NCBI GenBank assembly: GCA_035499735.1
Contig: DATJYC010000050.1
Span: forward strand, 658-64,657
Direction of reading: 5' to 3'
DNA: 64,000 nucleotides
Source: Burkholderiales bacterium
GTDB lineage: Bacteria > Pseudomonadota > Gammaproteobacteria > Burkholderiales > SG8-39
A program made the translations under genes and the position numbers. Position 1 is the stretch's first letter; every line of letters starts with the position of its first letter. The notes beneath the pieces were generated by a model that saw only the letters and a program-made list of their open reading frames with translations, was not told the origin of the DNA and made no database searches. This document shows, one piece after another, positions 39,403-46,119 of this stretch.

Positions 39403-40365
39403 CTACTCCGGCTTGATGTTGGCGTCGCGCGCGAGCTTGGTGTACATCGCCAGCTCCGTCTTCATCGTCTCGAGGAGCTGCTCGGGCGTGGTTCCCACGG
39501 CTTCGAGGCCGACGCTATTCAGGCGCTCCTTGACCACCTGCGGATCGCGCACGATCTTGTTGATCTCGGCATTCAGGCGATCGATGATGGGCCGCGGCGT
39601 GCCCGCGGGTGCCATCACGCCCAGCCACACGGTGACCGCGTAGCCGGGCAGCGGCCCGGCCTCCGCGATCGTCGGGATATCGGGAAGAATCGCCGTTCGC
39701 GTGGGAGCGGCGATCGCGATCGGCCGTAGCTTTCCGGATTTGTAGTGCGGCAGCAGCGAGTTCTCGGCGGCGATGGTGAAATCGATCTCTCCCGACAAGA
39801 GCGCGGGGATGATTCCGGCCGAGCCCTTGTAGGGTACGTGCACGACGTTGATGCCGGTCATCGAGCGCAGCAGCTCGACGGCGAGATGGTGCGGCGAGCC
39901 GACTCCCGCGGTGCCATAGGTCAGCGGCTTCGGCGATTTCTTGGCGTATTCGATGAACTCCTTCAGCGAGTGCACCGGCATGGCGGAATTGACGGTCAGA
40001 CCGAACGGAATCGTCGCGGCGAGCGAGATCGGCTCGAAGTCCTTGATCGGGTCGTAGGGGAGCTTCGCTACGACTGCGGCGCTCATGACGTGCGCCGACT
40101 CCGACATCAGTATCGTGTAGCCGTCTGCCGGCGCCTTGGCCACGAAGTCGCGCGCGATGTTCCCGGCCGCCCCGGGCTTGTTCTCGACCACGAATGGCTG
40201 GCCGAGCACTGGCTGCAGGTGCTCGGAAAGCAGCCTCGCCAGATAGTCGGGCGAGCCGCCCGGCGGAAGCGGGACGACGAAGCGGATGGAGTGGTTCGGC
40301 CATGGCTGCGCGAGCGCGGCCGCCGGGAGCGCGAACAGCGCGCATAGAAGGATTCGCGGAGTCAT
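39403..40365 (-). CDS. Tripartite tricarboxylate transporter substrate-binding protein (Bug/TctC family)
   Basis: Signal peptide, then IRFVVPLPPGGSPDYLARLL...ENKPGAAGNIA...YGTAGVGSPHHL, the Bug family pattern. Confidence 0.9.
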   Translation of the reverse strand: MTPRILLCALFALPAAALAQPWPNHSIRFVVPLPPGGSPDYLARLLSEHLQPVLGQPFVVENKPGAAGNIARDFVAKAPADGYTILMSESAHVMSAAVVAKLPYDPIKDFEPISLAATIPFGLTVNSAMPVHSLKEFIEYAKKSPKPLTYGTAGVGSPHHLAVELLRSMTGINVVHVPYKGSAGIIPALLSGEIDFTIAAENSLLPHYKSGKLRPIAIAAPTRTAILPDIPTIAEAGPLPGYAVTVWLGVMAPAGTPRPIIDRLNAEINKIVRDPQVVKERLNSVGLEAVGTTPEQLLETMKTELAMYTKLARDANIKPE

Positions 40366-40382
40366 GTCGTTCTCCTCGCTGG

Positions 40383-43819: not shown

Positions 43820-44875
43820 TCAGGCGGACGGCGCCGCGAGCGCTCCGACGGCTGCGAAGAGCGGCTCGACCGACTCGCGCTCGAGGTTCCGCGTGATGAA
43901 AACGAGCCGGGAGCGGCGATCGTCGCTCGGCCAGGCTTCGAGGGTCACGGGCGGGTGGAACACGTGCTGCGCGCCCTGCACCACGACCGGCCCCGCTTCG
44001 CCCGCGACGTTGACGAGGCCCTTCACGCGCAGGAGGTCGGAGCCGCGCAGCGACGTGAGCACCTGCACCGCCGCGGCGAAGCTATCCCAGGTGAAGGGCG
44101 TGTCGAACCACAGGCAGAAGGAGCGGACCTGCGCGTCGTGCGCCCCGGCGCGCACGCGCTCGCCGAGGTAGGCGCCTTCGGGGCGCGGCTCGCCGGCAGG
44201 CGACAGCCAGCGGTCGATGTCCTTCGCGGCGCGCGTGCTCCTGGGGCCCACGTCGCGCAGGAACGCCACGTCGACCTCGCCGTTCACCGCGATCGTTCGC
44301 GCAGCGTAGGGGTTCATGCGCGCGAGCCGCTCCTCGAGCGCCGCCACCGCCGCAGGCACAGCGATGTCGCTCTTGGTGATGACGATGCGGTCGGCGACCG
44401 CGGCCTGCTTGGCCGCCTCCGGCGCGTCGTCGAGGTTGCGCGGCCCGTTCACCGCGTCGACCAGCGTCACGACGCAATCCAGGCGGTACTGCGCGCCGAG
44501 CATCCCGTCGGTCTGCAGGGTGTGCAGCACCGGGACCGGGTCGGCGAGGCCCGTCGTCTCGACGAACACGCGGTCGAAGTCGATCACCTCGCCGGCGCGC
44601 CGCTTGATGAAGAGCTCGCGCATCGTCTCCTGCAGGTCGGTGCGCACCGAGCAGCACAGGCACCCGTTCGACAGGAGCGTCATCGACTCCGAGGAGGACG
44701 CGACCAGCTCGTGATCGATGCCGACCTCGCCGAACTCGTTGACGATGACCGCGGCGCGGTTCATCGCGGGATCGCGCAGCAGCCGCTTGAGGAGCGTCGT
44801 CTTGCCGCTGCCGAGGAAGCCGGTGATCAGGGTGACCGGAAGCTTCCCCGCGAGGACGTCGCGCCCCTCGCGCAT
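43820..44875 (-). CDS. G3E-family GTPase / metallochaperone (CobW/YjiA/ZigA-like)
   Basis: P-loop ITGFLGSGKTTLL, metal-binding GCLCCS, ETTGLADP, TKSD, and a CobW_C-like C-terminus. Confidence 0.9.
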   Translation of the reverse strand: MREGRDVLAGKLPVTLITGFLGSGKTTLLKRLLRDPAMNRAAVIVNEFGEVGIDHELVASSSESMTLLSNGCLCCSVRTDLQETMRELFIKRRAGEVIDFDRVFVETTGLADPVPVLHTLQTDGMLGAQYRLDCVVTLVDAVNGPRNLDDAPEAAKQAAVADRIVITKSDIAVPAAVAALEERLARMNPYAARTIAVNGEVDVAFLRDVGPRSTRAAKDIDRWLSPAGEPRPEGAYLGERVRAGAHDAQVRSFCLWFDTPFTWDSFAAAVQVLTSLRGSDLLRVKGLVNVAGEAGPVVVQGAQHVFHPPVTLEAWPSDDRRSRLVFITRNLERESVEPLFAAVGALAAPSA

Positions 44876-46119
44876 CAAACGGTCATCTCGAGGACGTATA
44901 GCCCGCCTGCGAAACGGTCGACGGTATACACGAGCCGCCGGTCGTCGACGTAGACGTCGTTCAGCTGGATCGAGCCGGCCTTCGAGAGCTTCGGCGCCGG
45001 GGGAACGTAGTAGGCGATCTCCTCGGGCCGGTAGGGGTTGCTCACGTCGAAGGCGCGCACGCCGCCGCCGAAGAAGGTGCCGACGATGATGCTCTCGGAG
45101 CGCCACGAGCCCGGCACCGGCAGGTTCTCGTGCAGGTTGTGCGCGCCGAAGCGCCCTCCGTTCTTCGCGAAGGTCGCGACGGGCGGCAGCGGGCAGGTGC
45201 TGATCGGGACGAGGTTCGTCTCCATGCGCGCGTCGACCACCCACACGAGCTTCGGCCAGTCCTTGCCGTCGGTGTAGGTGCACTCGTCGCTGACGATGAG
45301 CAGCTCGGGTCCGAATAGCGGGAGCACCGTGTGGGTGAAGCCGGTGTAGGGCGGCGAGTAATGCCAGCGCGAAACGAGCTTGGGGTGAGCCTTGTCCGCG
45401 ATGTCGAGGATGACCGCGCCGCCGGAGATGTAGCCGATGTAGGCGCGGTCGGGCCTCTGCGGAAAGACGTTGGTGTTGTGCGCGCGGTAGCCCGAGTCGA
45501 ACTTCGGGTGGCGCGCGAGCGGCGGCACCGCGTCGCCGACGCGCGTGCCGGGCAGCCACCAGCGCCCGATCTCCTCGGGCTTTGCGGGTTTGCGCACATC
45601 GACGATGCGGTAGAACTGGTCATCGGACGGATGCGTCGGCTCGAAGTCCGCCGCGCCCGAGGCCATGTGGACGTACTCGCCGTCGACGAACCACACGGCG
45701 TGCACGCCGCGCGAGTGCGGACCCGAGGCGTCGAAGTGCGAGATCAGCTTCGGCTGCTCGGGCTTCGCGATATCGAACAGGTCAAAGCCCGCGGGCTTCG
45801 TGTTCACCGCGCTCGTCTGGTAGGCGACCGCCATCACGTCGCCGACCACGTCGAGGGAATTCGAGCGCACCTTCGCATGCGGCAGCTCGGTCTGCACCAC
45901 CAGCTTCGGGTTCTTCGGGTCGGTGACGTCGACCGCGGTGAAGTTCTTGGGCGCGGATTCGTGCGCCATCCACAGGATCCGGCGGCCGTCCTTGGCGAGC
46001 TGCATGCCCATGCCCTCGCCGATCCCGCCGAAGCCCGCAAGCTCATGGTGCGACAGGAGCTTCATGTTGAGCGAGAGCGCCCGGTCGGGGCGAGCGGTTC
46101 CGGAGAGCGTGGAGGCCAT
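44875..46119 (-). CDS. LVIVD-repeat beta-propeller protein of unknown function (no signal peptide)
   Basis: At least five repeats of the h-D-h-x-(D/K/N)-P-x-x-P-(K/E)-h blade motif (FTAVDVTDPKNPKLV, FDLFDIAKPEQPKLI, YRIVDVRKPAKPEEI, VILDIADKAHPKLV, VRAFDVSNPYRPEEI). Start taken at ATG 46119; its stop overlaps the cobW-like start by 1 nt. Confidence 0.7.
   Translation of the reverse strand: MASTLSGTARPDRALSLNMKLLSHHELAGFGGIGEGMGMQLAKDGRRILWMAHESAPKNFTAVDVTDPKNPKLVVQTELPHAKVRSNSLDVVGDVMAVAYQTSAVNTKPAGFDLFDIAKPEQPKLISHFDASGPHSRGVHAVWFVDGEYVHMASGAADFEPTHPSDDQFYRIVDVRKPAKPEEIGRWWLPGTRVGDAVPPLARHPKFDSGYRAHNTNVFPQRPDRAYIGYISGGAVILDIADKAHPKLVSRWHYSPPYTGFTHTVLPLFGPELLIVSDECTYTDGKDWPKLVWVVDARMETNLVPISTCPLPPVATFAKNGGRFGAHNLHENLPVPGSWRSESIIVGTFFGGGVRAFDVSNPYRPEEIAYYVPPAPKLSKAGSIQLNDVYVDDRRLVYTVDRFAGGLYVLEMTV

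Follow-up and report, generated by a model that had tools for sequence, protein, structure and literature searches.

A putative Sb-PTE-like metalloenzyme of the LVIVD propeller family encoded together with a COG0523-type GTPase in a Burkholderiales operon

Introduction

To our knowledge, the roles of COG0523 (CobW-type) guanosine triphosphatases (GTPases) are poorly defined, and their clients are known in a handful of cases, namely Fe-type nitrile hydratase, the cobalt chelatase route and eukaryotic METAP1. The present work concerns an operon of five genes located on the minus strand, from 46119 to 39403, of a 64,000-nucleotide (nt) stretch of DNA from a Burkholderiales bacterium (assembly GCA_035499735.1, contig DATJYC010000050.1, positions 658 to 64,657), hereafter called the window. 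Its lead gene (44875-46119, minus strand) encodes a cytoplasmic beta-propeller of 414 amino acids (aa) with LVIVD-type repeats, and the second gene (43820-44875, minus strand) encodes a COG0523/CobW-type G3E GTPase of 351 aa. We lean, with slightly better than even confidence, toward the propeller being a cytoplasmic metalloenzyme that probably hydrolyzes an anionic substrate and is matured by this dedicated GTPase. COG0523 GTPases are present in all domains of life (PMC2770081). Such a propeller would constitute a new bacterial enzyme client for a family which has few known ones.

Among described systems, the closest to the propeller is Sb-PTE, the haloalkylphosphorus hydrolase of Sphingobium sp. 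TCM1 (5HRM, 5IOJ), which has seven blades and LVIVD-like motifs, as here. According to the title of its structure paper, as cited in PMC11656708, it holds a binuclear metal center in a seven-bladed propeller. Sb-PTE (583 aa) carries a long leader for secretion, with about 85 additional residues at its N-terminus, whereas the 414-aa propeller is cytoplasmic and devoid of leader. Moreover, Sb-PTE acts on neutral xenobiotic triesters, whereas the propeller of the window has additional conserved arginines and carboxylate-binding neighbors. A single Sb-PTE-type gene, that of Sphingobium xenophagum plasmid p3, was inspected, and no CobW gene adjoins it. Orthology with Sb-PTE was rejected in view of the 16-25% identity, the absence of one ligand and the different location.

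Regarding the association with a GTPase, the functional model that we propose, by analogy, is Fe-type nitrile hydratase, an enzyme whose metal site is of the His/Cys type, and Nha3, a COG0523 GTPase with a CxCC motif which is encoded directly downstream and is needed for metallocenter assembly (PMC2770081). The fold and chemistry of the two clients are unrelated, and the requirement for the window GTPase is our proposal. AztD, a metal-binding beta-propeller, is likewise often encoded near CobW-family genes (PMC6689063). It has eight blades, is secreted, contains a disulfide and is accompanied by ZnuA, ABC transporter and Zur genes, whereas the propeller described here has seven blades and no signal peptide. 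Membership of the propeller in the AztD family was rejected, with no detectable sequence similarity, no AztD among the top 50 Foldseek matches and no Znu or Zur neighbors.

Finally, SBP56 and the methanethiol oxidase MtoX are propellers with a similar blade type (GGVRxxDvsdP). A likeness to them had been suggested in a preliminary description of the locus made from the DNA letters. Membership itself is excluded: the NCBIfam model NF052453 scored 20.5 bits against a cut-off of 650, over 27 residues (342-368) only, the Pfam SBP56 model (PF05694) did not match the window propeller at E <= 0.01, SBP56 was not among its top 50 Foldseek matches, and no sulfur-metabolism genes were found among its neighbors. 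What may survive of the suggestion is a remote shared ancestry of LVIVD, Sb-PTE-like and SBP56 propellers, since a few distant family members (P0391, P0418, P0458, and P0480) have precomputed SBP56 matches and many have precomputed Beta_propel (PF09826) matches.

A Candidate Metal Site in the Propeller

The propeller matched Pfam LVIVD (PF08309) weakly, with 24.7 bits for a cut-off of 20.2 (E = 1.4e-5); this score is that of the whole protein, no single repeat being above the threshold alone. Most of its homologs have a precomputed PF08309 match. Six LVIVD-type motifs (xVxDvsdPxxPxxv), read by eye near residues 61, 112, 170, 235, 292, and 354, map to strands 3-4 of blades 1-6 in an AlphaFold2 model built from 54 homologs (predicted local distance difference test, pLDDT, 88.5; predicted template modeling score, pTM, 0.89), which has seven four-stranded blades. 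No hydrophobic or twin-arginine signal was found at the N-terminus of the translation; residues 15-25 form structural strands in the model, where the N-terminal strand closes blade 7. The Pfam match, the six motifs and the missing signal thus agree with the preliminary description of a cytoplasmic propeller with at least five LVIVD blade motifs. The family is large: among 8,000 candidates scored, 5,580 members (90%-identity clusters) were retained at E <= 1e-3, corresponding to 3,169 representatives at 50% identity. In their source records, the members listed are called “hypothetical” or “LVIVD repeat-containing” throughout, most being unnamed, and our literature search found no paper assigning a function to cytoplasmic LVIVD proteins.

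On the basis of sequence and fold comparisons, the lead protein belongs to an LVIVD/Sb-PTE propeller superfamily. Sb-PTE was the top Foldseek match of the model in PDB (5HRM, E = 1.5e-16, TM 0.68), seven orders of magnitude ahead of the next matches, which were generic WD40 proteins at approximately 1e-9 (best 2.5e-9). It was also the only significant phmmer match in PDB (E = 7e-4), the two remaining matches being to a mitochondrial ribosomal protein with E > 1, and the sole match of a profile search (E = 2e-5). The full Sb-PTE sequence was taken from S. xenophagum plasmid p3 (L086:1600-3351, 583 aa), whose gene is 100% identical to Sb-PTE across a 52-aa query. Alignment of the family profile with this sequence by hhalign gave a probability of 99.5% and E = 2.8e-22 over 374 columns in global mode, and 98.7% and E = 1.7e-16 in local mode; ten shuffled copies and the reversed sequence, used as controls, all gave E >= 0.08. 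The propeller and Sb-PTE share 16% identity when aligned by Foldseek and 25% when aligned by profile. The family had previously been credited with no characterized enzymatic function, a statement that no longer holds with a binuclear-Mn phosphotriesterase, Sb-PTE (5HRM), as a distant homolog.

We take the ligands of the binuclear Mn center of Sb-PTE to be E201, H258, H317, H389, E407, and H475. This numbering is said to be that of Mabanglo et al. 2016. The recovered sequence indeed has E, H, H, H, E, and H at these positions. In the hhalign alignment, the last five, H258, H317, H389, E407, and H475, presumably all ligands, correspond to H140, H214, H263, E279, and H330 of the propeller. These five residues are invariant among the 54 close homologs, as are E35, H53, E54, H327, E331, and D388. 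Across a wider set of 150 representatives clustered at 50% identity, conservation reached 79% for H140, 92% for H214, 92% for H263, 84% for E279, and 68% for H330; it was 84% for H53, 75% for E35, 89% for H327, 79% for E331, and 95% for D388. A conserved metal-ligand cluster was the feature which the preliminary description had named beforehand as a check, and the His/Glu set does map onto the ligands of Sb-PTE. The metal site of the propeller, as predicted from these alignments, is most likely homologous to the Mn2 center of Sb-PTE.

In the AlphaFold2 model, the first strand of blade 1 carries E35, and those of blades 3, 4, 5, 6, and 7 carry H140, H214, H263, H327, and D388, respectively. If the first strand of each blade is taken as the innermost, these positions would be those anticipated for a site along the axis of the tunnel. 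Four arginines (R85, R137, R212, and R323), situated beside the candidate ligands on the inner strands, are likewise invariant among the 54 close homologs, and R85 and R137 are 62% and 72% conserved, respectively, across the 150 representatives. Sb-PTE has no counterpart for them: Thr stands opposite R85 and R212, and no residue is aligned with R137. An anionic substrate would fit these additional arginines.

Conservation of the Propeller and GTPase Gene Pair

The product of the second gene contains the PF02492 cobW (164.9 bits) and PF07683 CobW_C (80.7 bits) domains, and the Walker A GSGKTT, GCLCCS (CxCC), and TKSD motifs were found in its translation, in line with the G3E GTPase bearing a GCLCCS motif that had been predicted; no His-rich stretch was found in its sequence. 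Its closest solved structure is that of Escherichia coli YjiA. The GTPase scored under all of the NCBIfam equivalog cut-offs, and assignment to a named type was rejected in three cases: YjiA, its best model (199.7 bits for a cut-off of 361), CobW proper (144.6 for 332), and ZigA (126.9 for 600).

Loci were compared among the best 80 of 362 genomic relatives, with propellers 69-95% identical to that of the window, and the synteny count was limited to the 75 loci in which 600 nt or more of sequence were available downstream. A CobW homolog was found directly downstream of the propeller gene, on the same strand, in all of them (75/75). The gap between the two genes has a median of about 8 nt; it is at most 60 nt in 65 loci and exceeds 150 nt in three only. 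Identities of the propeller and of the GTPase to their window counterparts co-vary (r = 0.93, 72 loci). The genes surrounding the pair differ between clades, so that the propeller and CobW genes stand out as a conserved unit. A reverse check starting from close CobW homologs returned only identical loci and adds little independent evidence. Outside this clade, a propeller of Erwinia rhapontici with 35% identity is also followed by a COG0523 gene, an unrelated one; the association has thus arisen, or been retained, more than once. Our literature search found no paper describing a propeller enzyme coupled to a COG0523 protein.

The propeller is marked out as the client of the GTPase by the 75/75 synteny, by stop and start codons that overlap, and by the co-variation of the two proteins. 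A broader claim, which we hold as tentative and somewhat short of an even chance, is that of a hitherto unrecognized client-chaperone pair, in which a large clade of Sb-PTE-like cytoplasmic propellers would have its metal installed by a co-evolving, coupled COG0523 GTPase.

Proposed Function and Alternative Explanations

From a mechanistic point of view, the conserved His/Glu ring on the innermost strands may bind one or two divalent metal ions at the tunnel mouth; the coupled COG0523 GTPase would deliver or proofread this metal through GTP hydrolysis, with Nha3 as a model. A metal-activated water would then attack an ester, lactone, amide or similar bond, by analogy with Sb-PTE. TctC proteins would bring in the substrate, probably anionic, and the hydroxy- or oxo-acid product would pass to a co-conserved HIBADH-type dehydrogenase, which would oxidize the hydroxy-acid. 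In the lineage of the window, a thiamine diphosphate (ThDP)-dependent enzyme and then, most recently, a flavin adenine dinucleotide (FAD)-dependent hydroxylase may have joined the transcript, and the whole operon may have been placed beside a cluster for amino- or hydroxy-aromatic acids, the ThDP and FAD genes tying the module to that cluster. The operon structure, the fold, the homology to Sb-PTE, the conservation of the ligands, and the strict synteny of the pair with its co-variation are established here; we infer that the propeller binds a metal, that the GTPase serves it as a chaperone, that the chemistry is hydrolytic, and to which class the substrate belongs.

Several observations weigh against this proposal. 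Hydrolase chemistry is an analogy drawn at 16-25% identity only. The bridging ligand, which we presume to be E201 in Sb-PTE, aligns to V84, followed by the invariant R85-S86-N87; with this glutamate lost, the site may lack a second metal or be constructed in another way. Our list of Sb-PTE ligands is backed by the identity of the residues at these positions only, and the clustering in space of the candidate ligands of the propeller is predicted from homology and strand positions. The close relatives of the propeller are all from metagenome-assembled genomes (MAGs), and none comes from a cultured organism. CobW was not seen beside six of the eight plasmid-borne relatives inspected (31-35% identity), at 27 metagenome loci around P0161-type relatives, at the loci of four distant relatives with Pfam annotation, or in the 770 nt available downstream of a 62%-identical relative (L100). 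Distant subfamilies being mostly devoid of a CobW neighbor, the chaperone would not be intrinsic to the fold. The co-occurrence of propeller and G3E GTPase, which the preliminary description had put forward for verification, therefore stands in the clade of the window, but most of the wider family does not share it.

The main rival, which we consider unlikely, would make the propeller a redox metalloenzyme (oxygenase or oxidase) with a single Fe(II) or Cu ion bound by four or five axial histidines, CobW inserting the Fe or Cu, on the model of carotenoid-cleavage/lignostilbene dioxygenases or of the SBP56/MtoX methanethiol oxidase. The loss of the Sb-PTE-type bridging glutamate would fit a mononuclear center, the conserved set is rich in histidine (H53, H140, H214, H263, H327, and H330), and the neighboring genes encode oxidoreductases. 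Furthermore, the best-documented bacterial enzyme client of a COG0523 protein is Fe-type nitrile hydratase (PMC2770081). The only significant structural and sequence homolog, Sb-PTE, is a hydrolase, however, and no carotenoid oxygenase, SBP56, NosZ or thiocyanate dehydrogenase was found in the top 50 Foldseek matches. The faint NCBIfam MtoX match and the SBP56 Pfam matches of a few distant members speak for this rival, but the former amounts to 20.5 bits for a cut-off of 650. The presence of a distant relative in an operon of the anaerobe Moorella also argues against obligatory O2 chemistry throughout the family.

Clearly less probable is a non-enzymatic propeller, serving in metal storage, transfer or buffering as a partner of the GTPase and as a cytoplasmic counterpart of the zinc-chaperone propeller AztD. 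AztD genes are often near CobW-CobW_C genes (PMC6689063), COG0523 subfamily 5 clusters with WD40 propellers (PMC2770081), and the tight one-to-one coupling and co-variation observed here would also fit a stable complex. By contrast, AztD is eight-bladed, secreted and disulfide-bonded, when the propeller is seven-bladed and cytoplasmic, and it was found neither among the PDB sequence matches nor among the top Foldseek matches. The GTPase has no His-rich stretch, and the wider propeller family is mostly devoid of any GTPase. Neighbors of the propeller are catabolic enzymes and carboxylate-binding proteins, and no ZnuABC, Zur, Fur or other metal-uptake genes were found at any locus with annotated flanks. 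Indeed, the neighborhood theme across the family is hydroxy- or oxo-carboxylate and sugar catabolism, never metal uptake. A cassette of zinc-starvation paralogs was also rejected, with no Zur or Znu genes and no His-rich linker in the GTPase. Least probable of all, and hardly to be entertained, is a non-catalytic scaffold or binding protein whose proximity to CobW reflects hitch-hiking in a mobile catabolic cassette: the Foldseek matches after Sb-PTE are mostly WD40 scaffolds and no function shown for any cytoplasmic LVIVD protein was found in the literature, but the invariant residues are exactly the inner-strand polar residues matching the Sb-PTE ligands, and the 75/75 synteny with overlapping or nearly overlapping stop and start codons is kept at 69-95% identity in otherwise different neighborhoods.

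The metalloenzyme that we slightly favor retains, from the preliminary description, the idea of a metallo-propeller enzyme, which came through both of the checks set there for refuting it, in line with ligand conservation and CobW synteny; it can no longer be called undescribed in kind, since a known relative exists in Sb-PTE, and the pathway formerly attributed to it is not retained (see below). The link to Sb-PTE offers a first structural and mechanistic anchor for a large propeller family found in the catabolic clusters of soil bacteria, and may show the origin of a recently evolved xenobiotic hydrolase. The broader reading of a client-chaperone pair, if true, would also point to the natural, non-xenobiotic chemistry that gave rise to Sb-PTE, a flame-retardant phosphotriesterase. 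A small soluble propeller with a predicted ligand set makes the chaperone question directly testable by co-expression.

Distant Relatives of the Propeller

Distant subfamilies (25-38% identity) occur in varied catabolic clusters for carboxylates or sugars. Their neighborhoods combine Amidohydro_2 with TctC, a flavin mononucleotide (FMN)-dependent alpha-hydroxyacid oxidase with a ThDP enzyme, an FAD/Fe-S dehydrogenase with a ThDP enzyme and an aldehyde dehydrogenase, an iron-type alcohol dehydrogenase (Fe-ADH) with a sugar ABC transporter or, in Moorella, TctABC with an aldehyde:ferredoxin oxidoreductase. The metagenome scan for the distant subfamily used a single protein, P0161, as the query.

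Propellers with 32-35% identity were also observed on plasmids of cultured Enterobacterales, namely Klebsiella, Rahnella and Erwinia (L087, L088, L089, and L120). A sugar ABC binding protein usually adjoins them, but not in Rahnella sikkimica (L120), and a divergent neighbor annotated as “oxidoreductase” is Fe-ADH-like where it was scanned (Erwinia, L089). These carriers offer tractable organisms for testing the propeller family. In the anaerobe Moorella humiferrea (CP136421.1, L127), a distant propeller, about 44% identical to P0161, stands in a row of genes on the same strand: tctA-tctB-tctC, ferredoxin, aldehyde:ferredoxin oxidoreductase, propeller, FAD_binding_2 flavoprotein, and ferredoxin.

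Organization of the Operon

Downstream of the propeller and GTPase genes, the operon comprises a Group A FAD aromatic-ring hydroxylase (42170-43813, minus strand; 547 aa), a ThDP-dependent enzyme (40383-42173, minus strand; 596 aa), and, as the last gene, a TctC-family periplasmic carboxylate-binding protein (39403-40365, minus strand). The TGA of the propeller gene and the ATG of the CobW gene have one base in common (TGATG, 44873-44877). A 6-nt gap (43814-43819) separates the CobW and FAD hydroxylase genes, the FAD hydroxylase and ThDP genes overlap as ATGA (42170-42173), and the 17-nt gap between the ThDP and TctC genes (40366-40382) contains a GAGGAG Shine-Dalgarno sequence. Open reading frame (ORF) translations and the sequence itself gave the five genes and four junctions exactly as in the preliminary description, and Pfam and NCBIfam confirmed the domain families assigned there. 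A terminator scan found no hairpin-like site on the minus strand within the operon. The five genes stand in the same order in L001, L003, and the JGI metagenome contigs L122-L126, which argues against a chance arrangement. L001, a soil Burkholderiales MAG, is the closest genome, with a propeller 95% identical at the protein level. The start of the propeller at 46119 is supported by the length of its homologs (414-417 aa).

Upstream of the propeller gene, the 91-nt divergent intergenic region contains, on the minus strand, the conserved element AAAGTGTACCCG (46183-46172) and the inverted repeat GGCGTTAGTATTACGCC (46170-46154). Both are kept in the closest loci (L001, L002, L005, L007, L013, and L015), and the segment they occupy (46154-46183) is probably the operator/promoter region of the operon; the promoter scan found no sigma-70 consensus upstream of the propeller. 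With no scan run, these elements are unlike what we take to be the AT-rich palindromic consensus of the Zur box.

Other Genes of the Operon and Its Neighborhood

The FAD hydroxylase matched FAD_binding_3 (252.7 bits) and Rng_hyd_C (47.7 bits) in Pfam, and belongs to the NCBIfam subfamily PRK06126 (691 bits for a cut-off of 445); it is RebC-like (RebC, 279 bits). It occurs only in the window, L001, L003, and L122-L126 and is, judging from this distribution, a recent insertion in the closest relatives. The ThDP enzyme contains all three TPP domains (Pfam) and resembles the benzoylformate-decarboxylase/PRK08327 type, below every equivalog cut-off; benzoylformate decarboxylase itself was rejected (138 bits for a cut-off of 493, NCBIfam). 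Its gene is confined to loci with a propeller of 76% identity or more. The aromatic or ketone pathway formerly attributed to the operon rests on these two enzymes, both of which are lineage-specific additions, and was accordingly set aside. In a broader way, the recurrent partners of the propeller and CobW are an HIBADH-type dehydrogenase and TctC proteins, with a bicupin in another clade.

The TctC protein of the operon (PF03401, 213 bits) has a signal peptide, its N-terminus being MTPRILLCALFALPAAALA, and the stop of its gene (39403) lies 8 nt from that of a convergent bicupin gene (39394). A second TctC-family binding protein is encoded divergently from the propeller (46211-47194, plus strand), in a position kept in many related loci. 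The HIBADH-type beta-hydroxyacid dehydrogenase (47717-48616, minus strand), outside the five-gene transcript in the window, is closest to L-threonate dehydrogenase and tartronate semialdehyde reductase. It is the most widely co-conserved neighbor: of the 45 loci with enough flanking sequence, 33 have a homolog no more than 3 kb away from the propeller. In L081, as in many loci of the 69-74% identity clade, its gene immediately precedes the propeller gene in one operon, which in that clade reads bicupin-TctC-HIBADH-propeller-CobW, sometimes with a LysR regulator. Neighbor clustering with a simple ORF caller was noisy at 67% GC, and was used only to spot the bicupin and Amidohydro_2 clusters.

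The convergent bicupin gene closes an aromatic-acid cluster on the plus strand (34088-39394), which also encodes an AndAc-like Rieske oxygenase alpha subunit (447 bits, under the cut-off of 750), a Rieske ferredoxin, a PhtD-like protein without any Pfam match, and a protein of the ornithine cyclodeaminase (OCD) family; the bicupin is weakly similar to 5-aminosalicylate and gentisate dioxygenases. Parts of this block, mostly the bicupin and OCD-family genes, recur with the propeller, CobW, ThDP and TctC genes in most loci at 76% identity or more.

On the other side of the operon, hydantoinase A/B genes (49991-54470, plus strand) encode an acetone-carboxylase-gamma-like C-terminal domain and are followed by an ABC transporter; their closest models, all under cut-off, are caprolactamase CapA/CapB and the acetophenone carboxylase subunits. 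The stop of the HIBADH gene overlaps, as ATGA (47717-47720), the likely start of a gene for an SRPBCC (Polyketide_cyc2) protein with a hydrophobic N-terminus, suggesting a second translationally coupled pair just upstream. Between the Amidohydro_2 and HIBADH genes, a type IV pilin-like ORF (48643-49110, minus strand; N-terminus GFTLLELMVVVGIVAILALLAIP) is inserted in this row of catabolic genes, an arrangement which was also observed in L122-L125, with a Pfam Pilin match.

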